From a virus, in IMG/VR virus record IMGVR_UViG_3300003886_000001, positions 32,001-96,000 of that record: a stretch of 64,000 nt of DNA; one strand, written 5' to 3'. The notes beneath the pieces are model-generated. The model was not told where the DNA came from and made no database searches. It saw nothing but the letters and a program-made list of their open reading frames with translations. Within the stretch, counting starts at the first letter, position 1; every line of letters starts with the position of its first letter. The translations under genes were made by a program, and so were the position numbers. Positions 22,592-42,721 of the stretch are shown one piece after another.

Positions 22592-22746
22592 TGAAGCTAA
22601 CTATTGAATTTGGTAGTATCCTTGACGACGACAGGTTAAAGAGCGCTTTGCAGGCCGTAAAAAGGGGTATGAAGGATTATGGTACATTTGATTACCGTTA
22701 TCGTTATACTAAACGATATCAGGGTAAAACGATAGTTAGAGTATGA
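22591..22746 (+). CDS. 51-aa paralog of 22262..22591
   Basis: MKLTIEFGSILDDDRL...; translated by hand, below the track cutoff. Confidence 0.55.
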   Translation: MKLTIEFGSILDDDRLKSALQAVKRGMKDYGTFDYRYRYTKRYQGKTIVRV

Positions 22747-23030
22747 TTATTAATAGAATAGAACCAATTATAAAAGAGAATTGGAAGTATTTACACCTTA
22801 ATCATGAAACAGGATATCTTTTACTTACAGGGGATGATTATTACGTCCCTGAGCCAATTAAACGATGGAGAGTCTATTTAGAAACCTTTGCTGATGCTAA
22901 CGCTCTTTTAGATGAAGTTACTCCGTTTGCACAACAAATGCTTGATAATTTAGCATATTTTGAAGCAAAAAACCAGATTAGTAAACTCTGTAGAAAAACT
23001 TTCGTAGACGCAGGTAAACCCTACTACTAA
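22743..23030 (+). CDS. LDxxTG..W..PFAQ paralog family member
   Basis: YLHLNHETGYL, RWRV, LLDEVTPFAQQMLD. Confidence 0.7.
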   Translation: MIINRIEPIIKENWKYLHLNHETGYLLLTGDDYYVPEPIKRWRVYLETFADANALLDEVTPFAQQMLDNLAYFEAKNQISKLCRKTFVDAGKPYY

Positions 23031-23264
23031 ACATACGAATCTATTAGATAGCCATTTCCTAAAACTAACTAAAGGTCCCCTTAGCACTCCTAAGAGTGCA
23101 AACTAATTTAACCTAATTTATGTAGCTATTATTTAGCGCCCTGGGAAGGTGCGTTATTTATTTACGGCGAATCCTAGTGGGTAACGCCACGCCCTGTCAG
23201 TCCTCTACATGTGCTTAGTAATAACTATCTACTAGTTTAGCCTATCTATATGAACAACGCAAAC

Positions 23265-23293
23265 TTGACATATAGGTATGAGGGTGCTATACT
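23265..23293 (+). promoter_or_regulatory. sigma70-type promoter, third tRNA block
   Basis: TTGACA-17-TATACT with TG extension. Confidence 0.85.
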
Positions 23294-23301
23294 ACCTACA
23301 T

Positions 23302-23388
23302 GCGGAAGTGGTGTAATGGTAGCCACGCAGGTCTTAGGAACCTGTGCCCGTAATGGGCGTGAGGGTTCAAGTCCCTCCTTCCGCACCA
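23302..23388 (+). tRNA. tRNA-Leu(TAG)
   Basis: Long variable arm, loop CTTAGGA, CCA. Confidence 0.92.
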
Positions 23389-23391
23389 TAT

Positions 23392-23465
23392 GAGTAGTTG
23401 GCCGAAAGGATAGGCAGGTGTCTGCAAAACACCCTACGTTGGTTCGATTCCAGCACTGCTCTCCA
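23392..23465 (+). tRNA. tRNA-Cys(GCA)
   Basis: Loop CTGCAAA, U73, CCA. Confidence 0.88.
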
Positions 23466-23469
23466 TTAT

Positions 23470-23543
23470 TGCTCGGTGGTGAAAGGGTATCACAACTGAC
23501 TTTGAATCAGTTATTGCGGGTTCGAATCCTGCCCGGGCATCCA
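23470..23543 (+). tRNA. tRNA-Gln(TTG)
   Basis: U1-A72, loop CTTTGAA, CCA. Confidence 0.88.
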
Positions 23544-23705
23544 AAAAGAACAAAGCAAATCTGGTAAATAGAAAACCTAAAGGGTAAGATGCCTCGATAA
23601 CCGAGGTATTAAATAAGAACCTGTCGTAGACATGAACTCTACCGATATTTAGGCAAGCCTAAAAAATAAGGAACGTCTCTACGACCCTCTCAGAGTTTGG
23701 TACAT

Positions 23706-23736
23706 AAAAGAAGCACCTTTTTAGGTGCTTTTCTTT
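23706..23736. terminator. bidirectional intrinsic terminator
   Basis: AAGCACCT-TTTT-AGGTGCTT flanked by A and T runs, between convergent units. Confidence 0.8.
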
Positions 23737-23888
23737 ACTATAATTAAGCCGATAATTGCTAATGTTACGATTATTAACAGGGCCGGAAAATGGCCGGCCG
23801 TCCAAAGAGTAATGAGGACAAATCCTCCTAGAAATGTAAGTAATATCACTATTACAACCAGTGTGGCAACCCATCCAAAGACATACAT
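23721..23888 (-). CDS. small membrane protein (55 aa)
   Basis: MYVFGWVATLVVIVILL...; translated by hand. Confidence 0.6.
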   Translation of the reverse strand: MYVFGWVATLVVIVILLTFLGGFVLITLWTAGHFPALLIIVTLAIIGLIIVKKST

Positions 23889-24107
23889 TTATTCCTCCAA
23901 AACTATGAAAATTAGAAGAATGAAGAAGGAACCAAAGGCTACCACAAAGTCAATAATCATTTCCACCTCTCTTCAACCATGACACCTATGATGATAAGTC
24001 CGAGCCCTACCACAAGCCCTCCAAGCATGGCTAACACGGAGCCTGTCAGGGCGGTAGCTATACCTATGAACACCACCACAGATACATATAGGACCGACAC
24101 TATTAGT

Positions 24108-24374
24108 TTAACCACTATGAGAGTCCAACACTTCTTGGATTGCTACCACTGCTGGGGGAACAAAGATTGCCAGAGAGATTCCTCCGAGGAAGAACAGGAC
24201 CCAGAAGTATGAAACCCCGAAAAACAGCGGTAGGTTACCAAACCCAATGATAATTCCGGCTATAATAAGCCCTACAAACGCTATGGCTGATAGCTGTATG
24301 ACATATACAGCCACTACCATTAGTTTATTTAATACGAGCTTGTTTAAGATTTCGGTCACCATTTTTTCCATCAT
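24108..24374 (-). CDS. small membrane protein
   Basis: Hydrophobic helices; GGAG RBS. Confidence 0.6.
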   Translation of the reverse strand: MMEKMVTEILNKLVLNKLMVVAVYVIQLSAIAFVGLIIAGIIIGFGNLPLFFGVSYFWVLFFLGGISLAIFVPPAVVAIQEVLDSHSG

Positions 24375-24392
24375 TTACTTCTCCTTATCTAA

Positions 24393-25154
24393 TCAGTGAG
24401 TAAACACTACTTTGGCGTCTGGTCCACGATGCAACCGCCAAGTTGAGCCATCAAATGAAGGTAAGTACCCTGCAAGCCACAAGGTGCGTAGACTAGCCCA
24501 TGGATTGGGTCGGCTAATCCCTTTCCAAGATGCTATACTTGGGAAGAGACTGCCTATGTAACCTGTTGCGCCTATGGAATCATCTCTTATTGAATCCCCG
24601 ACCGAATTCCGTACCGCACCCACCACTGAGTCACCAATTGGATACCACACCGAGTTCCATACCGAACCCCATACCGAACTCCACATTGAGTTTCGTATTG
24701 TATGTAGCACCGATTCCCACACTGGGACCTCTGATAAATCCCACACGGTTGCCACCCAGTCTGCGAGTAGGGTGTGCAACCTGTCCTTTGGCAACTCTGG
24801 TCCATTTACAAACAGGGGATTGATAGGATGGTTAGCTTCATACAGCCAAAACTTAGCCAACCTGTTCTGCTCCTCAGCGCTGATAATGCTAACCGGTAGA
24901 CACTCACTAACACGTGTTGATGTTTCATCCGCAGTAATGATGTGTTGTGGTTGTACCTCAACTTGTAGGTACTCACTTGAGCTACCCTGATACCGAACAG
25001 CATTCCAGAAGGTATGAGCTACATGTAAACCTGTTCCGCAAGTGCCTTTTTCGGGTGGGTCGGGATTAGCGACATGTAGTGGTTTACCTATCTCCCACTG
25101 TGTTTTCTTATCGTAGTAGCTAGTCATATCAAGTGTCACAGCTTTGTAATACAC
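24393..25154 (-). CDS. hypothetical protein with 4-residue SVW-type repeats
   Basis: CGTGLH N-terminal motif; SVWGSVWNSVW low-complexity tract. Confidence 0.75.
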   Translation of the reverse strand: MYYKAVTLDMTSYYDKKTQWEIGKPLHVANPDPPEKGTCGTGLHVAHTFWNAVRYQGSSSEYLQVEVQPQHIITADETSTRVSECLPVSIISAEEQNRLAKFWLYEANHPINPLFVNGPELPKDRLHTLLADWVATVWDLSEVPVWESVLHTIRNSMWSSVWGSVWNSVWYPIGDSVVGAVRNSVGDSIRDDSIGATGYIGSLFPSIASWKGISRPNPWASLRTLWLAGYLPSFDGSTWRLHRGPDAKVVFTH

Positions 25155-25480
25155 GATTTACTTCTCCTTTGTATTTCATTTTTCCATGAAAGGGCGTGAA
25201 CTTCGCCGACTCCCCAAAGAACTACTACGGTATGGTTTTCAATACCATCGGTATACTCCTTCTCTATAATCCTGTCCTCAGTAATACAGGTGGTCTCAGT
25301 TTCACCGTTTCCCCACCAGATATTGATGGGGCCTTTCCCGTATAGGTACAAACTAATACCTGTTAGTTCATTAGCGAATACCGACCATAATGAGTCCTTG
25401 TTATAGTTCTTTTCAAGCCACAATACCAACCCCTCATCCCCAGCTACTTCAAGGTCTTCCAGAGCGTCTTTAATGGTCAT
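25136..25480 (-). CDS. hypothetical protein
   Basis: ORF within the minus-strand operon. Confidence 0.55.
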   Translation of the reverse strand: MTIKDALEDLEVAGDEGLVLWLEKNYNKDSLWSVFANELTGISLYLYGKGPINIWWGNGETETTCITEDRIIEKEYTDGIENHTVVVLWGVGEVHALSWKNEIQRRSKSCITKL

Positions 25481-25503
25481 GACCTATAGTAACAAAGTCA
25501 TAT

Positions 25504-25683
25504 CTAAGAAGTATGATAGAAGAGGACAATTCCCGCTATGGCTATAAGGATGGTAAGGATAGCTGCCTCCCCCAGGATTAAGAAGGAGGAATTAATCGCC
25601 GACAAAACGAGCAACACCACAATAGCGATAAATAAAACAGCTGAAATACCAAGGGCTAGTAGCTTAATTAGGTCGACTAACAT
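25504..25683 (-). CDS. small membrane protein (59 aa)
   Basis: MLVDLIKLLALGISAVLF...; GGAGG RBS; downstream of TTCTCAT-N12-TATAAT. Confidence 0.6.
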   Translation of the reverse strand: MLVDLIKLLALGISAVLFIAIVVLLVLSAINSSFLILGEAAILTILIAIAGIVLFYHTS

Positions 25684-25896
25684 ACTGTTCCTCCACTTTC
25701 TATTATATTACCATCATACATGAGAAACATGAGTTCTCATACTTCTCATTAAAGTATGGGGTATCCTTGTTTTGTAAGTAGGGAGGTTAATGTAACGCTT
25801 CCCGGAGGTATGGGAGGCACCCCGTTAGAAGCCTCCTCCCCTGAGGTGTCTCCCTAGGATAGGGCACCTCGGGGATTCCTTTAGGAGGAGAGATTT

Positions 25897-26196
25897 ATGC
25901 CTTGGATAATAAAAGTACCGTTTCTTGTCCCTACGTGGGCTGCTGCCCAGACTTGGGGACCAATTATTTTGGTAAATAATAGGTATGCACTTACCACTAA
26001 AACCTTAGCACATGAATTGAGACACTATGTCCAGAGCATGTGGTTTGGTTTTATCCTGTGGCCCGCAGCTTACCTAGTTGCCTGGGCTATCGGGGGGTTT
26101 TCTTATCGCAATAATTGGTTCGAGAAGGATGCTAGAAACCATTCTGTTGACCCCCGTTATGTTAAGTGGGCTCAAAACACCAAATATCCTGTATGA
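25897..26196 (+). CDS. putative zinc metallopeptidase (HExxH; DUF4157-like)
   Basis: AQTWGP.I, LAHELRHYVQ, distal FEKDA. Confidence 0.7.
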   Translation: MPWIIKVPFLVPTWAAAQTWGPIILVNNRYALTTKTLAHELRHYVQSMWFGFILWPAAYLVAWAIGGFSYRNNWFEKDARNHSVDPRYVKWAQNTKYPV

Positions 26197-26618: not shown

Positions 26619-26877
26619 GCCTAATCATCTCCGGAGAGTAACTGAGCCCGGCTAATTTGACTCCCTCTTGCTCAATCTCTTTTGTGGGGCCATGATGTTC
26701 CTGTAGGAATCCCATAACATTGTTAGGACGACACGCGGCTAGTGCCTCTTCAACCGTTTCGAAGTCCCCTAAGAATGTAGCATGAGTACCAGCTATTACC
26801 CTAACCTTGATGCTGGTACCCATGACTTCTCCTTCAAGACTCAGTTCCTGCAAGAGGAAGGGGGAAACCTCAACCAC
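26611..26877 (-). CDS. hypothetical protein (start probably internal)
   Basis: ORF within the operon. Confidence 0.45.
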   Translation of the reverse strand: MVEVSPFLLQELSLEGEVMGTSIKVRVIAGTHATFLGDFETVEEALAACRPNNVMGFLQEHHGPTKEIEQEGVKLAGLSYSPEMIRHA

Positions 26878-29352: not shown

Positions 29353-29392
29353 ATCTAAATCCTAGCATAACTACATGAGAGCCTCCTGAGGA

Positions 29393-29662
29393 TTAATCTT
29401 TAACCTTCTCTAGGGTAACCATATTAAAACTTACTGCAAATCTTTCTAGGTATACCTCGGTCCTCAGAGGGTACACTTCTACCCTTCGTACCAGGTACCG
29501 TTTCTCCTTAACCAGTAACGTCCTTACCTGGTTGCGGTCAGAATCCGAGCCAGCTTCAAAAAATGGAATAACAATGTCCCCAGGTTGTAAAGGATAGGTA
29601 GGGTCATCAAAGACGACCTTACCATTTGGTAAAACATCAGGCTTAGTAAAGTTTTGTGTCAT
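29393..29662 (-). CDS. hypothetical protein
   Basis: Coupled ORF. Confidence 0.55.
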   Translation of the reverse strand: MTQNFTKPDVLPNGKVVFDDPTYPLQPGDIVIPFFEAGSDSDRNQVRTLLVKEKRYLVRRVEVYPLRTEVYLERFAVSFNMVTLEKVKD

Positions 29663-30132
29663 CTTTCCCCCCGTATATAGCGGACTTCAAAGGGATATTC
29701 CAGATAGTTAGCCAAAGACATTTCATGCTCGGGCTGAGAGTCCTCAAGATGTAGTTGTACAACTTCCTCCATTTCCGTATATAGCTCCTCTAAGGTTGCA
29801 GCGGTGACAGCTGCCTGCCAACGCAACGCTCCTGCCGACCAATTATGCTCTAGTTGTACTGTTGCAAAAGGATAGTAACCTAGGCACAGGTCGTGGATAT
29901 TATTGTATGCTAGTGCCGCGCCTGTATCTTCGACGTCGTCGTGATGGAAGTGGTTAATAAGTATTTGAGCTGGGCGTTGTATCTCGTTGAGGATTGTCTC
30001 CATAGACACGCCCTCTGCAATATCCCACCACAAAACAAGTCTAGCATGGGGAGAGTCTTCGTCTCCGCTAACTAGATAACTATCTTTTACGTGGAGGCCG
30101 ATTCTCTTAGGACCGCCCATTATCAATTCCAT
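29659..30132 (-). CDS. hypothetical protein, possible C-terminal HicB-like segment
   Basis: TAATLEELYTEMEEVVQLHLE. Confidence 0.55.
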   Translation of the reverse strand: MELIMGGPKRIGLHVKDSYLVSGDEDSPHARLVLWWDIAEGVSMETILNEIQRPAQILINHFHHDDVEDTGAALAYNNIHDLCLGYYPFATVQLEHNWSAGALRWQAAVTAATLEELYTEMEEVVQLHLEDSQPEHEMSLANYLEYPFEVRYIRGER

Positions 30133-30134
30133 TT

Positions 30135-30467
30135 TTAAGTCCTTTCTACATAATTTGAGATACGCTTTTCAGCGCCGGCGGCATTACCAACTAATGCTCT
30201 AATAAACCCCCATCTACTTCCACGTGGATAAGGTGGTGCCATAATGTACTCATTAAGAATTATTTGAGCATCCACTACCAGCTTTGGGAGTAGTGACTCA
30301 GCGTATTCCGGGGTACGTGAGGGAATAAACCACCACCTAAACACAGCACCATAAAATACTTCTACATCAGATACTTTAGAGTTAATAGCTAATACTCCAG
30401 TATCAAGATGCAAGGCAATATAGGATGCCTTAAGTATAGGGTGATATTCTACTTTAACAGTCTTCAT
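30135..30467 (-). CDS. LDxxTG..W..PFAQ paralog family member
   Basis: IALHLDTGVL, RWWF, LLPKLVVDAQIILN. Confidence 0.65.
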   Translation of the reverse strand: MKTVKVEYHPILKASYIALHLDTGVLAINSKVSDVEVFYGAVFRWWFIPSRTPEYAESLLPKLVVDAQIILNEYIMAPPYPRGSRWGFIRALVGNAAGAEKRISNYVERT

Positions 30468-31023
30468 GGTCTGGTTTTTCTCGGGCTAGATTCCGGCAAT
30501 CAAATAAATATTCCTTTAGGTCTAAAAGGACCGTTATTAAATCATCCTCTTCATAGGATGCATTCAATATAGGAGCCCTAGGGTTATCCTCTAAATAATG
30601 ACTCATGTCTTCCAATTGTCCGTCTGTTGTATAACTATACACAGAGTCAATAATTCTCCCATCATCCCAATCGGCGGCCTCTACATAACGTACTGGTTTA
30701 TGTTCCTCTGTACGCGTCTTGCAGGCTGTAGCTATTCTTGCGTGGGCTTCTAATGCAGAACCACCCGAATCCAAGGCAATCTGAGCATCTCCCGCAATAT
30801 TTCCCAGCAAACTATCAGCGGCAATCGGGGTTAATACCCCTATAGGCCAGACTAGTGACTTCGTTCGTAGTCCCTCCGACCTCTGTATTGATAAGCTACC
30901 GGCACCCCAATCTAACACTACCTCGCAAGGATGGGGCTTATTAGTAGGAAAGTCATACCATAATGAGTTCTTGAGTCGTGCGGAATCAAGAGCAGTGGGG
31001 ATGATGTTAATAATTCTCCTCAT
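30454..31023 (-). CDS. paralog family member with C-terminal extension
   Basis: VVLDWGAGSL, VWPIGVLTPIAADSLL, AQIALD. Confidence 0.65.
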   Translation of the reverse strand: MRRIINIIPTALDSARLKNSLWYDFPTNKPHPCEVVLDWGAGSLSIQRSEGLRTKSLVWPIGVLTPIAADSLLGNIAGDAQIALDSGGSALEAHARIATACKTRTEEHKPVRYVEAADWDDGRIIDSVYSYTTDGQLEDMSHYLEDNPRAPILNASYEEDDLITVLLDLKEYLFDCRNLAREKPDHEDC

Positions 31024-31412
31024 GCTCGTACAGCCCCGCATGCTTCCGCAATACGATTATAGGATGTTCTAGCGGATTCTGATACAACACTTCCCGCTAA
31101 GTCGTCCCAGATACTATCGGTTGGCGTTGCCGTTACCTCGCTGCCGTCAAGGACCCGTTGAGCAAACGGTTTAACGGTGTTCATAAGTGCATCCGCCGCA
31201 GGTCCTGATAGCGGGGCGATAGGCCATTCCAACGTAATTCCTACTAACACCCCTTCCGGGATTCTTCCGACGTCCCGGGTAAGGACATATAGACGCCCCG
31301 TTTCAAGGTCAAGACGCAAGAAACACGCCTCGGCCTCGCTATTCTGTTGAAGGGCTAAGTCTAGTTGCAGGATAGTATTAACCCTAACGTCCTTGACGGT
31401 TACAAGACGCAC
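31020..31412 (-). CDS. LDxxTG..W..PFAQ paralog family member
   Basis: LRLDLETGRL, EWPIAPLSGPAADALM, VKPFAQRVLDG. Confidence 0.7.
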   Translation of the reverse strand: MRLVTVKDVRVNTILQLDLALQQNSEAEACFLRLDLETGRLYVLTRDVGRIPEGVLVGITLEWPIAPLSGPAADALMNTVKPFAQRVLDGSEVTATPTDSIWDDLAGSVVSESARTSYNRIAEACGAVRA

Positions 31413-31413
31413 C

Positions 31414-31611
31414 TCAGTCTCCCCACCCCTCTGCTCGGTCCGCGCATTCATCACACTGGTAGTGGGCGCGGACATCGAGTTGTGTCAGCCGATTAGGTTC
31501 CCCGCAGGTGGGGCAAGGGAGGTTACGTGGGTTACGCCGAGTAGAGCGACGCAAGGCGCTACCACTATTCTCGAATCCAACACCATCAATCGGTTCATCG
31601 TAGTAATCCAT
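31414..31611 (-). CDS. small zinc-finger protein
   Basis: CPTC...CDECAD. Confidence 0.65.
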   Translation of the reverse strand: MDYYDEPIDGVGFENSGSALRRSTRRNPRNLPCPTCGEPNRLTQLDVRAHYQCDECADRAEGWGD

Positions 31612-31634
31612 GTCTTACTATAGCACCTGGTCAT

Positions 31635-31967
31635 CTAGGTGTCAACAGTTTGTTGACACAGTTTTGTGATTTGACGCTTCGCAGTGATAAACGGAGGGCC
31701 AAAACGCAGCACGTCTCCCGAGGCTGTATCAACAAACTGGCAGTTGTCAATCATTTGTTGAGCAAACGGGGTAATACTCTCTAGCAGGTCGTTGACATCT
31801 TCTGGTGCAACAATAACACGCCAATGTCTGACGGGGTTAGTGCGTGCGGCAGAATCTGTTTTTGGGGCGTCGTACCCCACTAGTGTAAGCTCTTCGCTAG
31901 CAATGTTGAAACGTACGTAAACAAACTTCCTGTCAGTAGCATTAACAATCTTTAAAGTTGTGGACAT
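31635..31967 (-). CDS. LDxxTG..W..PFAQ paralog family member
   Basis: HWRV, LLESITPFAQQMID, AKRQITKLC. Confidence 0.7.
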   Translation of the reverse strand: MSTTLKIVNATDRKFVYVRFNIASEELTLVGYDAPKTDSAARTNPVRHWRVIVAPEDVNDLLESITPFAQQMIDNCQFVDTASGDVLRFGPPFITAKRQITKLCQQTVDT

Positions 31968-32346
31968 TTATCTCCCCTTCTGCTAAGACTCCGATTATAT
32001 CCCATACCTCATCTTCTTTGATAAGGTTTGACATCCGGTTAGAATCGCCGGGGTCAAAAACCCTTCTACCATCCCATACCATAGCATGCCACTCTGTGAA
32101 TATGATGTGAACAGGAGCAAACGACTTAGGAGGCCAGGGTTTTCTTTCCACACCCAGAATGTGACCCTTTGGCCATGTCATGCGGTGAAGGTGTTTGATA
32201 CCATAGCCCGCTTCGAGCAGTAGATGCTTTACACCTGTCACGGTAGTTGCCGACCAACAGGTAGGAATGGTGTTAAGAGGCAGTCCTGTCACCATCGCGA
32301 TGCTCGCGGCGACGCATTGATTAGGCTGTTGTGAGACGTATTGGAT
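31942..32346 (-). CDS. C39-like cysteine peptidase, non-canonical start
   Basis: In-frame extension QYVSQQPNQCVAASIAMVTG; WHAMVWDG..VFDP. Confidence 0.6.
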   Translation of the reverse strand: MQYVSQQPNQCVAASIAMVTGLPLNTIPTCWSATTVTGVKHLLLEAGYGIKHLHRMTWPKGHILGVERKPWPPKSFAPVHIIFTEWHAMVWDGRRVFDPGDSNRMSNLIKEDEVWDIIGVLAEGEINVHNFKDC

Positions 32347-33114: not shown

Positions 33115-33138
33115 TTTAAGTTTCCTTTCCAAAGAAAG

Positions 33139-34147: not shown

Positions 34148-34223
34148 GGATAAATAATAGCGTTAAATAGTCTGAGAAGCATGAGACTAATCTTTCTCAT
34201 TAACTATCAGACTAAAATAGAGC

Positions 34224-34715
34224 ATGGAGCAGAAAAAGGCCGTCACCCTTGCCCGGAAGTTAATGAACCAACATGGTCTAGATACATTAACGCTCAAGAT
34301 AAGTAGTAGTAAACGAACCTTGGGAACCTATCAGTACAGAACAAGCGCACGTGGCGTTCACGAACCCGTGCAGATTAAGCTGTCAAAATATTGGTTAAAA
34401 ATATTGGATGAGGACCAAGTACGGGACACAGTGTTGCATGAGATTGCCCATGCGCTGACCCCTGACCATGGCCATGACCATGTCTGGCAACAGATGGCCC
34501 GGAAACTAGGAGTTTCTCCATCTCGTACGGCCCACGATGTTCCGGTAGAAGTACAGAAACGCCTTCGCCAGAGCGTGGCAAAATACGTCGCCATCTGTGA
34601 GACCGACCCATCCCATCGGTATTATTTTAATCGTATGGGGAAATTATGGTCCGCCGGAGCATACCGCTGTCACTGCGGAGGCCGTTATCATGTTTCTCAT
34701 AATTCTTCGGGATAA
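34224..34715 (+). CDS. SprT-like zinc metalloprotease
   Basis: VLHEIAHAL, HGHDHVWQ, C-terminal Cys cluster. Confidence 0.85.
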   Translation: MEQKKAVTLARKLMNQHGLDTLTLKISSSKRTLGTYQYRTSARGVHEPVQIKLSKYWLKILDEDQVRDTVLHEIAHALTPDHGHDHVWQQMARKLGVSPSRTAHDVPVEVQKRLRQSVAKYVAICETDPSHRYYFNRMGKLWSAGAYRCHCGGRYHVSHNSSG

Positions 34716-34840
34716 GATAAAGACATGGAACAGACACTCAAGCGCTTGGCTCGTGACTATTATAGGCACAATTGCCCCCTCCCTGATTACCTACTGGCTG
34801 TAATCACCCGTTCTCCTCTTCCTTACGGTTTTTCCTCCCC

Positions 34841-35212
34841 ATGACTTCTATAACGTTTCTTGGAGAGGTACCTAAACCTGCTCGTCAAATTGGATTAGAT
34901 GTGTTATCCGGAGAGTTATGGGTAACCTGGAACCAGAGGAAGACATCGACTCAAAAGGAATGCTTACGTAAGGCCGGGATAGAGCCGCATAAGTTTGACT
35001 GGGCAATCCTGTGGTGGGGAATTGAAGAAGTATTACCCCCAAAGGAATTGAAGACTTTACTCCGGTCGATTAAGCCACACATACAGATTCTGTTGGATAA
35101 TTATAAGCTTGTAAAAGATGCGGCTGGAAACAATAAAGTTGACCTTCCAGACGGCCCCGCGAGCGCCGCTTACTACGCCATCTGTGACCTATGCGATAGC
35201 ACCTACTTATAA
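34841..35212 (+). CDS. LDxxTG..W..PFAQ paralog family member
   Basis: IGLDVLSGEL, WWGI, LLRSIKPHIQILLD. Confidence 0.7.
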   Translation: MTSITFLGEVPKPARQIGLDVLSGELWVTWNQRKTSTQKECLRKAGIEPHKFDWAILWWGIEEVLPPKELKTLLRSIKPHIQILLDNYKLVKDAAGNNKVDLPDGPASAAYYAICDLCDSTYL

Positions 35213-35257
35213 TTCTCATCTTTAACGGTGCTATTGTATGGGTAGGAGGAAAATACC

Positions 35258-35566
35258 ATGAAGTCGGTGAATGTGATTGCGCCTTCTGAGCTGGAAGACC
35301 ATTATGTTATACTGGACTACGAGACTGGAAACTTGTCTGTAGGGTCTGGTAAAAATACCGGTATTGCTACGATTTGGAAGATTCATAAGGACTTGTCAAC
35401 GCCTGCTTTGAAGATGCTTTTGCAGGATATTAAACCCTATGCACAGCAGGTGCTTGATGGTTCACACCCGGAGCCCGTCCTGGTTGTAATGACCAAAGAA
35501 GCGGTTCGGGCAGAAGCTGATATCTCCATCCTATGCGCGGAAGTGAGCGGCTATGAGGATTGTTAA
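35258..35566 (+). CDS. LDxxTG..W..PFAQ paralog family member
   Basis: ILDYETGNL, IWKI, LLQDIKPYAQQVLDG. Confidence 0.7.
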   Translation: MKSVNVIAPSELEDHYVILDYETGNLSVGSGKNTGIATIWKIHKDLSTPALKMLLQDIKPYAQQVLDGSHPEPVLVVMTKEAVRAEADISILCAEVSGYEDC

Positions 35567-35735
35567 ACATGGTAGAGAGTAAACCCGTGACAGGACCATA
35601 CTTGCCTAGCGGTCCTGTTGCCGCCGCTTTGGAGATTTGTATTCCCTTGATGAAGAAAATGACCAAAGAAGCGGTTCGAGCAGAAGCTGATATCTCCATC
35701 CTATGCGCGGAAGTGAGCGGCTATGAGGATTGTTA
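35488..35735 (+). repeat. 78-bp direct repeat (35488-35565 and 35658-35735)
   Basis: One mismatch; 170-bp period. Confidence 0.92.
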
Positions 35736-35736
35736 G
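35569..35736 (+). CDS. 55-aa ORF sharing its C-terminus with 35258..35566
   Basis: MVESKPVTG...MTKEAVRAEADISILCAEVSGYEDC. Confidence 0.45.
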   Translation: MVESKPVTGPYLPSGPVAAALEICIPLMKKMTKEAVRAEADISILCAEVSGYEDC

Positions 35737-36307
35737 ACGTACAGCCCCAATAGAAGGTAAACCCTTTATAGGGTTATATTTGCCTGGTAGCATTCTTTCG
35801 TGTTATAGCCTTTGTTCTGACCCAGCTAGTTTGTCCTACGACTTATTTGCTGATTCAGCTATATGGGACCGTTTTCAGCTGAATTGGGAAGTCGGGCCTC
35901 TAACCCTAAGTGGTATTAACCAGTTAATGGAGGATATTTCCGACCTGGCACAGATAATTGTGGATGGCTCCGTGTTGGACTTTGACAACGAGACGGTTAT
36001 AAGTACGGCGCCGGCTACCACTGCCATAAAAGAGATTAAAAAGGTTTGTAGGGATACTTTTCCTTCCCCTTATCCCTTGATAAAAAAAATGACGACAAAG
36101 TCATGGATAACCAGTATCCTACCTTGTCTTGATGATATTAAGGCATACACAGTTGTAGAGAAGTTGAAAGAGTGTAATAGAGACTATCACTTCCTCTTGG
36201 AATTGGAGACTGATATTGAGTCGCTATTAGGGGAGGGTATAGTGTTACTGGACCTTCCTGACTACCTACAAGGAATGCACGATAGGATGGTGTGTAATGC
36301 AATATAG
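35723..36307 (+). CDS. paralog family member with C-terminal extension
   Basis: NWEVGPLTLSGINQLM, AQIIVDGS, LLDLPDYL. Confidence 0.7.
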   Translation: MRIVRRTAPIEGKPFIGLYLPGSILSCYSLCSDPASLSYDLFADSAIWDRFQLNWEVGPLTLSGINQLMEDISDLAQIIVDGSVLDFDNETVISTAPATTAIKEIKKVCRDTFPSPYPLIKKMTTKSWITSILPCLDDIKAYTVVEKLKECNRDYHFLLELETDIESLLGEGIVLLDLPDYLQGMHDRMVCNAI

Positions 36308-36458
36308 TATTATCCCTCAAGACCATGGGTTTATCGCGGTTTGCGAGGAATACCCTTCTCTATCGGCATTTGGAGCTACGGAAGCGGAGGCCCTTACCGA
36401 GCTTGAAGGGCTAGTAGAAACCGCTATTGAAATTTATGAGGAAGAAGGCTGGGAGTAA
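36297..36458 (+). CDS. orphan HicB-like antitoxin domain (53 aa)
   Basis: MQYSIIPQDHGFIAVCEEYPSLSAFGATEAEALTELEGLVETAIEIYEEEGWE; overlaps both neighbours. Confidence 0.75.
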   Translation: MQYSIIPQDHGFIAVCEEYPSLSAFGATEAEALTELEGLVETAIEIYEEEGWE

Positions 36459-37051
36459 TGGTTACTGCTATACCAAAGAAAAGGTCACTATTGAGCTTTG
36501 ACGGTAATATCCCACGAAAATGTCATGTACTCCTCGATACCCTCGCGCAGGAATTGTGGGCTACTGACGCAGTTGTTAGTGACCTTTTACTTCCTAATCT
36601 TAAATGGGAAATTGCTCCATTAACTGCGGATGGAACAAACGCACTGTTGAGGGATATTACCGAGGCGGCCCAGGAAATAGTAGACGGGGCTACCATAGAT
36701 AAAAATGAATTACATCTTACAACCTCCGCTCTTATGGCGCAAGGAGATATCCTTAATCTCTGTATTCGCACATTTGACTCCCCCTATGAAAGGGCAAAAT
36801 GGGTAACCGCCGAAAAATGGATGGCTACGACGCTAGTGGGAATGTCCAAGTATGACCGTAACGCTCTTTTACTAATTGAGGACCTTCATAACCTAAAGGG
36901 CCATACCTACAACTACCTGGTAAGCCTAGAGGAAGCTGTCTACGAGCTTGTAGCGGAGGATACCACGTTGGTAGGACTAGAAGACTATCTACAGGCACAG
37001 TATCGCAAAGCGTTGTTTTCGGACGTAGAGAGATGTCTACATGAAGCTTGA
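36458..37051 (+). CDS. paralog family member with C-terminal extension
   Basis: KWEIAPLTADGTNALL, AQEIVDG, LVGLEDYL. Confidence 0.7.
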   Translation: MVTAIPKKRSLLSFDGNIPRKCHVLLDTLAQELWATDAVVSDLLLPNLKWEIAPLTADGTNALLRDITEAAQEIVDGATIDKNELHLTTSALMAQGDILNLCIRTFDSPYERAKWVTAEKWMATTLVGMSKYDRNALLLIEDLHNLKGHTYNYLVSLEEAVYELVAEDTTLVGLEDYLQAQYRKALFSDVERCLHEA

Positions 37052-37697
37052 ATTGCTACCTGAGACATATCATTTACCGAAGAGCTATGATGACCCAGCA
37101 CAACCATATGTTCAACTGGACCTAAATTTGGGAAGATTAACAATTGTACTAAAGGACCGGCCGGATGAAAAAAGAGTGCTTCTCGGGAGTAACGCAACGG
37201 TACGTGAATGGCAAATTGCAGTGTTTTCGGTTGCGGCCGCTAATGCATTATTGAGGAAGATACAGCCATTTGCACAAGAGCTATTAAATAACATTGAGCC
37301 CAGCTACACGTTTAACGGGGCTGGGGAAAGGGCCTGGAAGAATATTGACCACCATTGCAAACTCACCTTTACGACGATGGAGGGATATGGTGTTCACCTC
37401 AACTTTCGAGTGGAAGAAGTCGGGGACTATTATCGCTACGTTATCTTGAAGAACACTGGGATTTTTACCGCTTTGGCAATTCTTGATGATGAGACTAAAA
37501 CTGACATAGTAGAGCATCATACTTTAATGTGGACGACAAGGGGGTTAAACACGGCAGAAACTAATGACCTGCTCAAGGAGTTATCAGTCTTTGCTATGAA
37601 GCTATTGACAATCGGACTTGTAGATGATACATTTGCAGAGTGGAGTTCCGAATACGCCGAGGTTATCGAAGCTGTATGTTCCGCCGCTGGACTTTAA
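37041..37697 (+). CDS. paralog family member, apparently two domain copies
   Basis: QLDLNLGRL, EWQI, LLRKIQPFAQELLN; second MWTT...LLKELSVFAMKLL. Confidence 0.7.
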   Translation: MKLELLPETYHLPKSYDDPAQPYVQLDLNLGRLTIVLKDRPDEKRVLLGSNATVREWQIAVFSVAAANALLRKIQPFAQELLNNIEPSYTFNGAGERAWKNIDHHCKLTFTTMEGYGVHLNFRVEEVGDYYRYVILKNTGIFTALAILDDETKTDIVEHHTLMWTTRGLNTAETNDLLKELSVFAMKLLTIGLVDDTFAEWSSEYAEVIEAVCSAAGL

Positions 37698-37741
37698 CAT
37701 CCCCTATGTTATAGTCCACCCATCATGTTAAAGGAGGAGAT

Positions 37742-38014
37742 ATGAAGGTTAAGGTGTTGCACGAAAGTGGCCGCGTTCTTCAACTTGACATGAGCACTGC
37801 GGAGCTTTCCATTCAAACGGGTTCCACCTTTGAGAAAAACTATACGCTCCTAGCCCGTTTGCGTTGGCCCATCACTACTACTAAGCATAGCGAATCTCTT
37901 CTCATGGAGGCTGCTGGTTTCGCACAAGTGCTCATTGATTGTCACGAGGCTGGGGATATCACACGCCAAGTGGCCTCTGACGCACGAAAAGCAATTCATG
38001 GACTTTGTAAATAA
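37742..38014 (+). CDS. LDxxTG..W..PFAQ paralog family member
   Basis: LQLDMSTAEL, RWPI, GFAQVLID. Confidence 0.7.
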   Translation: MKVKVLHESGRVLQLDMSTAELSIQTGSTFEKNYTLLARLRWPITTTKHSESLLMEAAGFAQVLIDCHEAGDITRQVASDARKAIHGLCK

Positions 38015-38042
38015 GCATATCAAGAGATTTAAAGGAGGAAAG

Positions 38043-38118
38043 ATGAAGGTTAAAGAAGAAGAGATGAAGGTTAAAGAAGAAGAGATGAAGGTTAAAGAAG
38101 AAGAGATGAAGGTTAAAG
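38043..38118 (+). repeat. 21-bp tandem repeat ATGAAGGTTAAAGAAGAAGAG x3.6
   Basis: Exact units at 38043, 38064 and 38085; partial unit at 38106. Confidence 0.95.
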
Positions 38119-38366
38119 TGGAACATGTCACATATATTTCCCTCTCACACGAAACCGGTATCCTTTGTGGGACGGATGGGTACCAGGCAACGATGTGGGG
38201 ATGGGCTACGAATACAAAGAACAGCGAGGCCTTACTTAATGCTATCTCAGGGTTTGCCCAGATTCTCTTAGATACATACAAATACGAGACGAACCCAATA
38301 ATGTTACGAGCCTATAATTTGGCGGATTCGGCGATAGAGGCACTATGTCTGGAAAAAAACACATGA
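38043..38366 (+). CDS. LDxxTG..W..PFAQ paralog family member
   Basis: ISLSHETGIL, LLNAISGFAQILLD, AIEALC. Confidence 0.7.
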   Translation: MKVKEEEMKVKEEEMKVKEEEMKVKVEHVTYISLSHETGILCGTDGYQATMWGWATNTKNSEALLNAISGFAQILLDTYKYETNPIMLRAYNLADSAIEALCLEKNT

Positions 38367-38632
38367 AGGTCAAAGTAGAAAATGAGGTTAACTTTATCTC
38401 CCTTTCGTCGGAGGATGGTCTTCTCCGTGGCGGGATGGAGTCACAGGCAAATCACTTTACGTGGGAGTGGCCTACAACTACAAAGGACGCCTACACCCTG
38501 TTTACTGTTATTAAGGGGTTTGCACAGAGTCTCTTGGACCTGGACGAGCTTGAAGATAGTGCCCTTGCAACGCTGGCTCTTGACCTGGCAGACCAGGCGA
38601 TAGAAAGACTATGTCTGGAACACAATGATTAA
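38363..38632 (+). CDS. LDxxTG..W..PFAQ paralog family member
   Basis: WEWPTT, IKGFAQSLLD, AIERLC. Confidence 0.7.
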   Translation: MKVKVENEVNFISLSSEDGLLRGGMESQANHFTWEWPTTTKDAYTLFTVIKGFAQSLLDLDELEDSALATLALDLADQAIERLCLEHND

Positions 38633-39134
38633 CGACACTTCAGCCTTCAGCGCGGCATCCTATCTAGCCTACAAAGGAGCGTACCCGCTCCTTATTGAAC
38701 CCACTGGGCGCGTGACAGCAACGGATGGCTATATGTTCTTTACCCACGAGGGGTGCCTAAGTGACTGGGATACCACGCTCCTACTAGCACCTATCAAGAG
38801 ACCCAAGATTCTCCGCTCGCAACGTGGCGTTAACCTGGAATTCCTGACGAACGGGTTTGGGTGGTCATTGACACAAAGTGGGACGATATTAAACAGTTTT
38901 AAGGTCAAGGAAAGACTACAGTTTCCAGATTATCACGTTCCCGAGCTTGATGCTACCTCTCCATTGAAGGGGGACTTCGTCCCTCTTAACGCCCGGCTAG
39001 TTGCTCCGGTACTTAACATCCTCATGTCGCCAAATGATAAAAGAGCGTTCGGGTGGTATAATGTAGACGAACTAGTGTTAAAGTGGGGTCACCCAAACTA
39101 TGACTTGTACGTAAGAAAGCTTGTCTCCGCATAA
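38625..39134 (+). CDS. hypothetical protein with beta-clamp-like ATDGY motif
   Basis: VTATDGY...FPDY; weak resemblance only. Confidence 0.5.
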   Translation: MINDTSAFSAASYLAYKGAYPLLIEPTGRVTATDGYMFFTHEGCLSDWDTTLLLAPIKRPKILRSQRGVNLEFLTNGFGWSLTQSGTILNSFKVKERLQFPDYHVPELDATSPLKGDFVPLNARLVAPVLNILMSPNDKRAFGWYNVDELVLKWGHPNYDLYVRKLVSA

Positions 39135-39487
39135 TGAATCTAGAGGACATAGACACTTTGTATATGCTGTCCGGACTCAGCGGGGGTAACAATATTTCAT
39201 ATCGAGGACGGTCAAGGGTTACGCCTACAAGAGCACCTGTGGTCTGTATTAGGCGTTGTCCGCTTTATTGATAGGGGAACCGGTCGAGAGAATGCGACGG
39301 CCTTACAGCGGCATCTGGGGGCTCTCTGGGGCCGTCGATACGAACAAGTAAAGTCAGTTTTGGGTGAAGGTGATATCCGATTACACCTGAGACCATAAAA
39401 AGGGGCTTTCTTCCGTTTCCGCGTCCCGTCACCGCGTACTCTGGTTTACTCGCCCGGTTAAACTAAGCCTAGTATAGACCATTTCCT

Positions 39488-39793
39488 CTATTTTGTCAAG
39501 TTTGGACTCCAAAGCTTCTGAGGGCCATCATAGACCTTTGCGTCACTGTCCTTCCGTGCTTCCTCTAGCCAGAGAGACGCCTTTATCTCGTCGGCAAACG
39601 GGATGATATAATTCTCCCCACGTACAAACTTCCCGTTTACTAACTTGGCGTATTTACTGTCGGGTCCACCAACGGCATCCAAAAATGCCTCATTCTCTAC
39701 CTGGTCAAAGTACAGCACCTCGATAGAGTAGGCGTCACTATCAGTCGACCTATACACCTCCGCTACAATGTTTTCTTCTTTAATCCCCCTCAT
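39488..39793 (-). CDS. hypothetical protein
   Basis: Coupled ORF. Confidence 0.55.
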   Translation of the reverse strand: MRGIKEENIVAEVYRSTDSDAYSIEVLYFDQVENEAFLDAVGGPDSKYAKLVNGKFVRGENYIIPFADEIKASLWLEEARKDSDAKVYDGPQKLWSPNLTK

Positions 39794-40077
39794 CTCTTAT
39801 GCCCTCTTTCTACGCTAGCTAGCAGCGCGTCCATGGACTGTCCGGTCTTTCCCAGGCAGTCTTTTACTACCCGGCCGTTAGCAGGGTAGACCGCAAACTC
39901 ATCGTAGGCGTGGATGATGTCCTTGGCGTATACGTCGCCCATCTCATGTTCCCACCCGAAAACATCTACGAGGACCAACTCGTCCTTGGCGCTCTTCATG
40001 GCCTTTCGTACCACGCCGGGCCAGCCGGTTATCAGGATAACAACATCGCCCTTCTGGAGCTTCTCTTTGGTATCCAT
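39790..40077 (-). CDS. hypothetical protein (leaderless)
   Basis: ATG 5 nt after TAAAAT of a TTCTCAT-N12 promoter. Confidence 0.6.
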   Translation of the reverse strand: MDTKEKLQKGDVVILITGWPGVVRKAMKSAKDELVLVDVFGWEHEMGDVYAKDIIHAYDEFAVYPANGRVVKDCLGKTGQSMDALLASVERGHKR

Positions 40078-40242
40078 ACGTTATTTTACGTCCCTTCTGT
40101 ATGAGAAGTATTATCCTTTTCAAGGCATAAGTAAATCTGTAGATGCCATGTACCAAGGATGATGCGTCTATCATGCGGGCTGGCACATAGCAGTGCTTTT
40201 CCCAGTGCTACCAGGAAGGCATCCTCAGACTTCATCATAGCC

Positions 40243-40713
40243 TCAGCTTCTGTCATTCTCCGTTACCTCAAAATCGCCCCCACAGACACTACAGCGATAG
40301 TAATTAGGGTTAGCCCAGTGTTTTCCCATCCGGTTGAAGTAAGTCCTATGCTCGGGGTTCTTTTGGCATACGGCTACGTACTTTGCCACCTTCTGCACTA
40401 CGTCCCGTGTAATCTCCTCGGGAATACAGGAAGCGGTCCTCGTCGATGCAATACCAAGTTTTCTTGCTACCTGTTGCCATTCTTTCCCATGCTCTGCATC
40501 AGTGCTGCTTAACGCATGAGCTATCTCATGGAGTATGATGTACTTTACGTGCTCTGTGGGCAAATTGGTTACCCACGGCTCCGACAAGCTGATTGTTCCC
40601 AAAAGGTAGTACCCCAGACAATGTTTCCCTTTGTTCCACGTTAAGGCTACGTCCTCTAGCCCGTTTTCGTCCATTAGCTTCCGGGCTAGTTTGGCGGCAT
40701 GGCTCTTAAGCAT
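40243..40713 (-). CDS. SprT-like zinc metalloprotease (paralog of 34224..34715)
   Basis: ILHEIAHAL, HGKEWQ, VAKYVAVC..YFNRMGK. Confidence 0.85.
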   Translation of the reverse strand: MLKSHAAKLARKLMDENGLEDVALTWNKGKHCLGYYLLGTISLSEPWVTNLPTEHVKYIILHEIAHALSSTDAEHGKEWQQVARKLGIASTRTASCIPEEITRDVVQKVAKYVAVCQKNPEHRTYFNRMGKHWANPNYYRCSVCGGDFEVTENDRS

Positions 40714-40921
40714 GGTTTAACTCTGGGAGGTTCTTGCCATGAAGGGACCACCAGTCTTGGACACAAGCGTTAACGCGGTCTTCCCATATCCGAAACACGT
40801 TAAGGATGTCCCGGTCATTATCTACCGACGCCAAAGCGTGTCCCAAGTCCCTCATGAATGTATCCTTAGAGTCGGTCATGGCAAGTAATACGTAGTAGAT
40901 GGCTACGTCCTTGGATTCCAT
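40706..40921 (-). CDS. hypothetical protein
   Basis: ORF. Confidence 0.5.
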   Translation of the reverse strand: MESKDVAIYYVLLAMTDSKDTFMRDLGHALASVDNDRDILNVFRIWEDRVNACVQDWWSLHGKNLPELNHA

Positions 40922-40938
40922 GCCATATAATACCCTGT

Positions 40939-41223
40939 TTATAAATGAGAAGGATGAGCTGATAGGTTAAAGTCCCGTAGCACACCGTCAAACTCAAACA
41001 GGTTGAAGTAGTCATCTTCCATTCTCAGAGCCGTCTTAGAGTCCACAACAGCCATCGCCTCTTTGAGGGTGGTTACCCCTGTCAGGTCCTTATCTTCCAA
41101 GCCTCTAGCCGCCCCTTTGTACACAAAGAATTCAGTATCGGAGTGATACTCTAGACGGGAGGACACGCCGGGCTCCGGATAAGCTACTTCAACTTGCATG
41201 ATTAAATCCATACTACTCTTCAC
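40939..41223 (-). CDS. hypothetical protein
   Basis: ORF. Confidence 0.5.
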   Translation of the reverse strand: MKSSMDLIMQVEVAYPEPGVSSRLEYHSDTEFFVYKGAARGLEDKDLTGVTTLKEAMAVVDSKTALRMEDDYFNLFEFDGVLRDFNLSAHPSHL

Positions 41224-41465
41224 CTTTGTAAGAACGCTCGTTCTCCACGATTAAGGCTCCCATCCTACGCAGAACTTCTTGGGGCGTGATATAAGGCTCG
41301 GGTGCCCAGTCCAGCGTGTTCTCTTCTGTGAATTCTGGGGCGTAGACCTTTGCGTATGCTTCCAGGAGACTGTCCATGTTTACCTCCGTGTCCATCCGCT
41401 GTCCTATTGTATGTGCCCTTTCAGCTCTAGACCAACACTAAGTGAGAAATATAAGAGGCAAGTGG

Positions 41466-41641
41466 CCCCCGGTGAAGCTGTAATGGGGGCCGCTGCGGAG
41501 TAGTGCCCCGGGTACCTCGGGTTGTGCCTTCCGCGTATACCTTAGGCACGTATGTAGTATAGGCTGATACTAAGTGAAGAGTATGAGGGCAGCGACCCCC
41601 CGGTGAAGCTATAATGGGTGGGGGCCGCTGCGGAGTAGTGC
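41466..41641 (-). repeat. two copies of a 41-45 bp GC-rich element (41466-41506, 41597-41641)
   Basis: CCCCCGGTGAAGCTRTAATGGG(TGG)GGGCCGCTGCGGAGTAGTGC on the + strand. Confidence 0.85.
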
Positions 41642-41722
41642 AAATACCCGGATATATCAATATGGTGGGTATTGCAGCATATCGTGTTGCCCAGGCTCTG
41701 CCTAGGTAGCTATACTATAGGC

Positions 41723-42007
41723 CTAGACAGAATGAGAAGTATTAAAGTCACAGAGGTTGCTAATAGCTTGGCTAGCTTCTTCCCTCATCTGGTATTCCAC
41801 AGTGCCCTTTGGGTGGTAGTAGTAGTCCAGGAGAATTTGGGCAAATGGAAGAATAGCCCCCAGTATGGCCAGGTCGTCCGTATCGCGCATAATTGCCCAT
41901 CCTACGGTGTTGCCTGCTGGTATCGTGCGATTGATACACAAGTCGCCCGTTTCCAAATTAAGGCATATACTCCGAGACTCCATGGACGGGGTTATTTTAA
42001 CTTCCAT
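41723..42007 (-). CDS. LDxxTG..W..PFAQ paralog family member
   Basis: ICLNLETGDL, GWAI, ILPFAQILLD, AISNLC. Confidence 0.75.
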   Translation of the reverse strand: MEVKITPSMESRSICLNLETGDLCINRTIPAGNTVGWAIMRDTDDLAILGAILPFAQILLDYYYHPKGTVEYQMREEASQAISNLCDFNTSHSV

Positions 42008-42133
42008 AGTCTTCCTTTCTCAAAATGAGACACAGCACCCACGTTAGGCGCTGTGCTCTACGGCATCCCCCCGTCGTGCTCTTATCCTATAGTGGGACCC
42101 GCACTGTCTAGGCGTACGTCCTAGGTAGCTATA

Positions 42134-42421
42134 CTATAGGCCGAGTGCGCATGAGAATGATGAGTCGCAGAGGTGGATAATTGCCCGGCTAGCGCCCATG
42201 TATGCCTGATACGCCAAGCCGTCTCTTGGAACCTCAAGGCAGTCCAGGACAATCTTGGCAAACGGGGCAACGAGGCGGAGTAGCTCGTCGGTGTCCGTAG
42301 TTGCACTGATTGACCACCCGGTGACGTGCTTGCCCCGCACCGTGTAGTCCACGTACAAGTCTCCTGTCTTATGGTCCAGGCACAGCTTGTCGCCCTTTGA
42401 CGAGATTACTTTAACGTCCAC
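42134..42421 (-). CDS. LDxxTG..W..PFAQ paralog family member
   Basis: LCLDHKTGDL, GWSI, VAPFAKIVLD, AIIHLC. Confidence 0.75.
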   Translation of the reverse strand: MDVKVISSKGDKLCLDHKTGDLYVDYTVRGKHVTGWSISATTDTDELLRLVAPFAKIVLDCLEVPRDGLAYQAYMGASRAIIHLCDSSFSCALGL

Positions 42422-42424
42422 GCG

Positions 42425-42721
42425 TCACTCCCTTTCCGTGCAAAGATTACTAATTGCCTCAACCGCTACCTCGTAGACATTTAACTTCACGTTGTCTGGT
42501 AAGGGGTTATGGAGGTTATCGTCGTAGTCTAGTATAATTTGGGCGAAGGGCTCGGCGGCCTTCATAGTCTCGTGAGCATCACGGTTTAACGGAAGATACC
42601 ACATAATAACGTCGGCCGACTCCGGCACTTCCGGCGCTACCGGGGCCGCTTGTAGAGTGCCCGTTATGAGGTCCAGCCAGAGAACGTGCGGCTTAGCGGG
42701 TGGCACTACTTTGAGTTTCAT
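42425..42721 (-). CDS. LDxxTG..W..PFAQ paralog family member
   Basis: LWLDLITGTL, MWYL, AEPFAQIILD, AISNLC. Confidence 0.75.
   Translation of the reverse strand: MKLKVVPPAKPHVLWLDLITGTLQAAPVAPEVPESADVIMWYLPLNRDAHETMKAAEPFAQIILDYDDNLHNPLPDNVKLNVYEVAVEAISNLCTERE

Follow-up and report, generated by a model that had tools for sequence, protein, structure and literature searches.

Twenty-two diverged DUF8280 paralogues in the genome of a large uncultivated phage

The 64,000-nucleotide stretch of DNA analysed here (hereafter the window) corresponds to bases 32001-96000 of the 119,665-bp IMG/VR record IMGVR_UViG_3300003886_000001, which is estimated to be 72% complete; coordinates are window positions unless they are given as genome positions. 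It carries a family of small and very divergent paralogous proteins, which an earlier note, made from the letters of the window alone, had put at about 16 members and described as a host-interaction or anti-defence family still undergoing expansion. All 16 are real, but the true total is 22 genes, 17 in the window and five upstream of it, and reciprocal profile matches place their products in DUF8280 (PF26929). DUF8280 itself is already catalogued, if uncharacterised; what is new is this 22-copy expansion, an extreme variant of the family. There is in our view about an even chance that the copies are diversified binders directed at the host or at its defences, a function that we infer from the distribution, context and divergence of the family.

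The 16 open reading frames (ORFs) of the original list were all recovered at their positions, and both their alignment and leave-one-out profiles show that they are homologous. Every core domain matches the profile built from the remaining ones, with expectation values (E) from 3e-6 to 4e-17 for a database size (Z) of 1115, the number of open frames in the genome. The members align over approximately 95 residues (aa), among which a Leu, a Trp and an Ile are invariant and an A-Q pair and a Cys are nearly so; the motifs first described, namely L-D-x-x-T-G-x-L, the invariant Trp, (P/G)FAQxxLD and I-x-x-L-C, are all present. A profile made exclusively from 76 relatives outside this phage ranks the 22 family genes above all other ORFs of the genome (E from 1.7e-20 to 0.07), and an iterative profile search of the genome converged at the same 22 genes with nothing further. 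The members missing from the first count are one gene in the window (29659-30132, minus strand, 157 aa) and a head-to-tail array of five genes at genome 12.1-16.2 kb, located 16-20 kb before the window in the same record and encoding proteins of 129, 307, 317, 300 and 309 aa. Altogether, the 22 genes contain about 27 domain copies and occupy about 10.8 kb, or some 9% of the record (6.7 kb in the window and 4.1 kb upstream). To our knowledge, phage expansions of such a size are uncommon outside virion protein families.

The earlier note recognised no named domain in these proteins. This part of it has to be abandoned: PF26929 was found on one window protein and on every outside relative whose precomputed annotation was shown, the assignment being that of the precomputed annotations. 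When 1.84 billion representative proteins were searched with the window profile, 431 matched at E <= 1e-3, of which 36 reached E <= 1e-10; annotated DUF8280 members were matched at E values between 9e-14 and 1e-3. A word-indexed protein search recovered almost solely the genome's own proteins, and a tblastn search with one relative against cultured-phage records gave no match. Scans of the window members and 81 relatives against PHROGs, NCBIfam, PADLOC and a copy of Pfam without the PF26929 model yielded no meaningful family. Neither the profile nor the structure searches returned a well-characterised structural protein.

Leaving aside the phage's own proteins, the DUF8280 relatives are mostly 190-220 aa long, with the core at approximately residues 22-122 and a helical tail behind it. 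They are strongly acidic, with a median net charge of -26 and a median isoelectric point (pI) of 4.3; the pI is below 7 in 125 of the 128 that were examined. They share with the phage proteins the core motifs W, P-x-AQ-x-x-LDG and I-x-x-x-C, and, in the extension, the motif W-x-A-x-DW ... Y-L. The C-terminal extension ending in L.DL.(D/E)YL that had been described in three members is indeed present in all three of them: 30454-31041 (minus strand, 195 aa, ending LLDLKEYL), 35723-36307 (plus strand, 194 aa, ending LLDLPDYL) and 36458-37051 (plus strand, 197 aa, ending LVGLEDYL). The four upstream proteins with lengths near 300 aa and the consensus of the outside relatives have it as well, and a weaker form of it occurs in the member at 29659. 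The outside profile spans core and extension in the three full-length window members (profile positions 22-200, 54-194 and 25-189, respectively) and in the first 200 residues of one protein from the upstream array (positions 60-198). Since a profile devoid of any sequence from this phage aligns through both parts, the ancestral unit is an acidic two-part protein of about 200 aa, made up of the core of about 95 aa and the helical C-terminal extension, and the core-only copies are truncations. When restricted to the C-terminal tails of the outside relatives, a profile scored below significance against the window extensions (E 0.03-0.3).

The domain content of the family has thus been remodelled within this phage. 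The two-part architecture is kept in three window genes and four upstream genes, whereas 12 genes (11 in the window and one upstream) are reduced to the core and one more has a short extension. Five genes contain two cores. One is 37041-37697 (plus strand, 218 aa), for which the earlier suspicion of two domain copies is borne out by profile searches that recover two tandem cores; the others are the four roughly 300-aa proteins of the upstream array, which consist of a strongly diverged N-terminal core (hhalign probability 84%, E 7.6e-6), the extension and a clear C-terminal core.

The core is predicted with confidence to be a small alpha/beta fold. The AlphaFold model of the 110-aa member at 31635-31967 (minus strand), computed with the alignment of 22 domains, has a predicted local distance difference test (pLDDT) score of 83.7 and a predicted template modelling (pTM) score of 0.75, and runs from three strands through a 20-residue helix and a hairpin to an 18-residue helix. 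The model of the 194-aa member at 35723, computed with 80 relatives (pLDDT 74.2), adds a helical bundle. Across the 22 cores, the first helix is constant in length and the second differs by no more than 2 residues, while the link between strands 2 and 3 ranges from 13 to 33 residues and the hairpin between the helices from 3 to 24; these two segments also have the highest entropy. Foldseek found no match to either model in the PDB at E <= 0.001, the best E value of a sequence-profile search of the PDB was 0.12, and look-ups of two relatives in the ESM Atlas gave no usable match. The BFVD database contains one true relative, the uncharacterised protein A0A6J5T181 from an uncultured phage (E 1.8e-5, TM score 0.76).

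The origin of the family was examined in the context of the phage that carries it. The window encodes a family A DNA polymerase, RtcB, RNA and DNA ligases, a portal-like protein, an SNF2 helicase, two SprT-like proteins and one DUF7227/GP88 protein, together with 32 tRNA genes that are arranged in three blocks at 17005-23543 and cover nearly all amino acids. The nearest cultured relatives are Thermus phages, whose proteins are only about 36-40% identical; taken with the gene content, this distance indicates that the source is a large uncultivated phage from an unsampled lineage. Its two closest phages have genomes of 202 and 194 kb (97% complete) and DNA polymerases that are 70% and 59% identical. 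Their backbones are collinear with that of the present phage: counting proteins of 100 aa or more, 67 and 45 could be matched, with median identities of 61% and 46%. Nevertheless, searches of both full genomes with three profiles and all filters off disclosed no credible family member. A weak match in one of them (G002, 18710-19213, E 0.014, in two fragments) was judged not credible. The five upstream genes are inserted between two genes whose orthologues are directly adjacent in the closer relative, and the window segments 29659-32295, 34841-40077 and 40939-42721, as well as the singleton at 22743, have no counterpart in the relatives although their flanks do. Given this absence and the conservation of the flanks, the simplest history would be the gain and expansion of the family on this phage's branch.

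The family had been presented as a true, expanded and strongly diverged set of paralogues, a description upheld by the tree and by local recombination scars. The tree groups physical neighbours: 38043 with 38363 and 37742, the trio at 41723-42721, 35723 with 36458, and the five upstream genes. Such clustering points to tandem duplication, by which the family has mainly multiplied, its members having often been cut to the core or, in five genes, fused into two-core proteins. Their divergence is far beyond that of the backbone orthologues: paralogue identity has a median of 21% and a maximum of 48%, levels at which synonymous sites are saturated, and in a joint tree the phage paralogues have branches some three times longer than the outside relatives do.

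Both of the duplication scars that the earlier note had reported could be verified. The one at 35488 is an 81-nucleotide (nt) direct repeat with 98% identical copies at 35488-35568 and 35658-35738, 170 nt apart, which contain the last 25 codons of the member at 35258 and the start codon of the member at 35723. The interval between the copies encodes a diverged version of the 35723 N-terminus, and the 58-codon frame at 35560-35736 (plus strand, read from the sequence) joins an N-terminal piece resembling the start of 35723 to a C-terminal piece identical to the end of 35258; it is therefore a chimeric remnant of two paralogues. The other scar, a variable-number tandem repeat at 38043, is a 21-nt unit repeated 4.3 times (38029-38118, plus strand, 95% matches). 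It corresponds to a multiplied ribosome-binding site and start codon from the translation-start region, now translated as MKVKEEE repeats. A 38-nt repeat with a promoter-like motif follows both 41723 and 42134. These scars attest to unequal recombination of recent date, but give no sign that whole copies arose recently. As even the closest pair of members is only 48% identical, the claim of ongoing expansion was overstated.

The distribution of the family elsewhere bears on what it might do. At the loci examined, DUF8280, a widespread family, is cargo of mobile elements: phages, phage-plasmids, plasmids and integrated elements. In a Chromobacterium phragmitis phage-plasmid and in a metagenomic phage contig, the relative is respectively the first and the second gene of a block that diverges from the terminase genes; another is the first gene after an integrase, and yet another is carried by a 76-kb phage-like contig, where it lies amid Dam, Mom-like and Thy1 genes. 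Relatives are present on 14 Streptomyces plasmids; S. albidoflavus is among the culturable carriers. In the two of these loci that were inspected, the DUF8280 gene is directly followed by a gene whose product, conserved and 176-178 aa long, gives only sub-threshold helix-turn-helix (HTH) matches (L006, 7681-8211; L010, 8705-9241); a helicase with helicase-associated (HA) domains comes after it on the L010 plasmid, and DnaB precedes the DUF8280 gene on the other. This plasmid protein may be a regulator or part of a conserved three-gene module. The window gene that follows the member at 38363 (38625-39134) is unrelated to the genes, near 180 aa in length, that come after DUF8280 at other loci. 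A Nocardia island combines a relative with a DEAD/HA helicase, AbiEi/AbiEii and a DNA methylase, and on a Leptospira plasmid the relative adjoins ParA. In a metagenomic actinophage-like contig (L012, 5001-5561), a Phd/YefM antitoxin N-terminal domain precedes the DUF8280 core in a single fused protein, so that DUF8280 takes the usual place of the partner-binding domain; no recognisable toxin gene adjoins this fusion. One last relative forms the C-terminus of a 1206-aa protein within a row of very large proteins in a phage-like contig. The outside loci that were fetched have one copy each, or two in a single case, and a sample of 301 Actinomycetota genomes gave a match in three, again one each; the 22 copies of the present phage stand in contrast to this.

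Several of these features favor a role in host interaction or anti-defence: the restriction of the family to mobile elements, its early or accessory positions, the acidity of the ancestral form, the fusion to an antitoxin domain, the absence from the sister phages and the fast divergence. Under this reading, the proteins would be non-enzymatic binders produced early in infection, in which a conserved scaffold displays the strand 2-3 link and the inter-helix hairpin as the two variable parts that set the specificity. Different copies would bind different host or defence proteins, acting by direct inhibition or by mimicry, and the spectrum of host defences or strains with which the phage can cope would grow as copies duplicate and diverge. 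A more specific version, in which about 27 variants of one small fold are each tuned to another defence or strain factor and the array is continually reshaped by unequal recombination, is possible but should be taken as tentative. Twenty-two diverged yet intact copies, against none in the nearest relatives, are in any case an unusually strong evolutionary sign of an adaptive and fast-evolving family, a pattern that is expected of host-antagonist or anti-defence proteins. If the more specific version is correct, the array would be to the phage what a diversified family of immune receptors is to a host, and would offer a ready panel for the study of DUF8280 function. The full-length, core-only and double-core forms are also a natural variation series that points out the minimal functional unit and the freely varying segments, and that can inform structural studies and screens against defence systems.

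A number of observations weigh against this interpretation. DUF8280 is mentioned in no paper that could be retrieved with the family name or the accession numbers, and no named PHROGs, NCBIfam or PADLOC family exists for these proteins. A comparison of both models with 48,161 chains using VIA-align gave best Z scores of 4.7 and 5.5 (the latter to PsiB), which fall in the noise range stated for the tool, so that no known inhibitor or DNA mimic is matched significantly in fold. The short window copies are far less acidic than the outside relatives; across the window copies the net charge ranges from +3 to -18, and three of them are neutral or basic. Finally, a single origin of the copies is compatible with the tree, but this tree is poorly resolved, and the array may alternatively have been acquired already diverged.

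Comparison with known systems helps to delimit what kind of binders these could be. The outside relatives recall the DNA mimics Ocr of phage T7 and ArdA, which are also small, very acidic, borne by mobile elements and located in early or leading positions. Yet the short copies of the present phage have lost most of the negative charge that characterises DUF8280 elsewhere and in this respect differ from Ocr and ArdA; since they are weakly charged and three copies are neutral or basic, simple DNA mimicry cannot apply to every copy. No Pfam match to ArdA (PF07275) or Ocr was obtained, and neither appears among the matches listed in the PDB fold searches. An ArdB/KlcA-type antirestriction protein was rejected, the hhalign probability against the F-plasmid gene annotated "antirestriction protein" being 0.2%. 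PsiB (PDB 3nct), likewise a plasmid-borne accessory protein, which inhibits the SOS response by binding RecA, is the top structural match of the 194-aa model (Z 5.5, root-mean-square deviation 3.6, 89 residues aligned). Nevertheless, this Z score is below the level at which the tool is meaningful, PsiB is not among the top 50 matches of the more confident short model, and hhalign gave a probability of 0.4% when the 81-sequence family alignment was compared with the F-plasmid PsiB (PF06290). As for acr-aca operons, in which small cargo genes precede a conserved HTH regulator gene behind an operator-bearing promoter, no HTH gene was recognised among the window neighbours that were scanned, and the conserved protein next to DUF8280 on the two Streptomyces plasmids has only sub-threshold HTH matches. 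In the way it multiplied, the family is reminiscent of the K3L gene accordions of poxviruses, where a host-antagonist gene gains tandem copies that then diverge and recombine unequally. Poxvirus accordions are, however, transient arrays of near-identical copies, whereas the copies described here are anciently diverged (21% identity) and their domain content has been remodelled.

Instead of acting on the host's defences, the proteins could serve the phage's own programme as adaptors or regulators that bind phage or host machinery for replication, repair or transcription, such as helicases or RNA polymerase. The neighbourhood lends itself to this explanation: the family clusters flank the SNF2 helicase and two SprT-like genes, outside relatives adjoin DnaB, with genes for DEAD/HA-domain helicases one gene further downstream, the antitoxin domain fused to one relative is a DNA-binding one, and an abundant promoter-like motif in the window (see below) implies phage-specific transcription factors. 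Yet a housekeeping function should be conserved in the two closest phages, which share the helicase, polymerase and SprT genes and have no copy of the family, and 22 fast-diverging copies fit poorly with the binding of one conserved machine, so we hold this explanation to be doubtful. A narrower form of the host-interaction reading would make the proteins antitoxin-like or immunity-like neutralisers of toxins, either those of host abortive-infection systems or the phage's own. They are small, acidic and single-domain, as such neutralisers would be, and the Phd/YefM fusion and the relative beside the AbiEi/AbiEii pair in Nocardia could be read in this sense; but the fusion was found in only one of the 91 relatives scanned, and no adjoining toxin gene was recognised next to it or in the window, which makes this option unlikely.

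Large phages are also known to contain paralogous families of head proteins, some of which are injected (PMC12676376), and the DUF8280 proteins might likewise be packaged in the capsid and delivered into the host. The head and inner-body paralogues of phiKZ (gp92-97, 153, 162 and 163; PF12699), several of which are dispensable singly and some of which reach the host cell (PMC12676376), resemble the present family in being multi-copy and diverged within one large phage genome, and the 1206-aa protein with a C-terminal DUF8280 domain sits among very large proteins of a phage-like contig. Packaging is nonetheless quite improbable. The phiKZ paralogues are virion proteins conserved throughout their family, whereas the genes described here are absent from the nearest relatives and lie outside the virion module, on both strands and amid replication and repair genes (SNF2 helicase, SprT-like, DUF7227/GP88); moreover, DUF8280 is shared with plasmids and integrated islands that make no capsid, and no capsid-targeting or protease-processing signal was seen. 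That the copies are neutral duplication debris without a current function would account for the recombination scars, the chimeric remnant and the very long branches of some highly diverged copies, but it can be set aside as most improbable, because all 22 genes retain intact reading frames even though the median identity is 21%, the buried-type residues (L, W, FAQ, I..C) are kept and about 9% of the record is spent on the family despite the strong constraint on phage genome size.

The remaining members in the window are distributed as follows. The singleton at 22743-23030 (plus strand, 95 aa, core only, leave-one-out E 6e-14) is located between the second and third tRNA blocks. The first cluster is encoded on the minus strand: the member at 29659, with its short extension (leave-one-out E 1.4e-9), is followed by a core-only protein of 110 aa at 30135-30467, the most divergent copy (leave-one-out E 3e-6), which is basic (pI 9.3) and lacks the Cys; then come the full-length member at 30454 and, at 31020-31475, a 151-aa protein with an N-terminal leader that is the best window match to the outside profile (E 1.7e-20). 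The core-only member at 31635, used for modelling, completes this group. On the plus strand, the second cluster opens with a 123-aa protein that has a long insert between strands 2 and 3 (34841-35212; alignment and leave-one-out) and a core-only protein of 102 aa whose last 81 nt are repeated downstream (35258-35566; alignment and leave-one-out). It continues, after the two full-length members and the two-core gene, with a core-only protein of 90 aa (37742-38014; alignment and leave-one-out), a protein of 107 aa counted from the ATG at 38043 (38043-38366), whose frame is open from 37935 and whose 143-aa form is the one with the precomputed PF26929 match, and a core-only protein of 89 aa (38363-38632) that forms with the preceding one the closest pair in tree and identity (48%). 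The last cluster, on the minus strand, is made up of three core-only proteins of 94, 95 and 98 aa (41723-42007, 42134-42421 and 42425-42721, all supported by alignment and leave-one-out); the first has a 38-nt repeat with the promoter-like motif at its 3' end, and the second copy of this repeat is at 42120-42157.

The clusters are bordered by two SprT-like paralogues, at 34224-34715 (plus strand) and 40243-40713 (minus strand). The closest relative has only one SprT-like gene, which both of them match, with 50% and 40% identity. The fact that each of them borders a family cluster suggests that a larger segment may have been duplicated and inverted.

The statement that several members have their own promoters was only partly sustained. 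A TCTCAT motif precedes 34841, 35258 and 41723-42007, and a sigma70-like site precedes the 31475 block. In the window, TCTCAT-N11-13-TAnnnT occurs 29 times, against 2.45 occurrences expected from shuffles, which makes it a candidate for a phage-specific promoter class. Examples are the sites at 34195-34218, 34695-34718 (ahead of 34841), 35214-35237 (ahead of 35258), 41714-41737 and 42133-42156, and several others cluster at 49442-49864. The sigma70-like site, at 31645-31617, is near the consensus and lies just upstream of a gene inside the minus-strand cluster (31414-31611, minus strand) that encodes a 65-aa zinc-ribbon protein with two C-x-x-C pairs and weak Zn_ribbon matches.

Other small paralogues and repeats were noticed in the vicinity of the family. 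Right after the upstream array, three tandem genes of 93, 131 and 141 aa (genome 16.8-17.9 kb; L001 6849-7953) form a second small paralogous family with the shared motifs Y-G-x-I, W-x-Y-P and E-A-x-W-W-L-x-Y-Y; unlike the DUF8280 family, it has homologues in both relatives. Immediately before the singleton, the adjacent small genes 22262-22591 and 22591-22746 have a common N-terminal F-G-(R/S)-I-L-D-D-D motif and may be another paralogous pair, the first of them having a homologue in the relative G002. Further downstream, the gene 24393-25154 (minus strand) encodes a 253-aa protein whose N-terminus matches DUF7666 (E 2e-5) and which has a Trp-rich repeat, S-V-W-x-S-V-W; the gene contains a 12-nt tandem repeat at 24657-24683.

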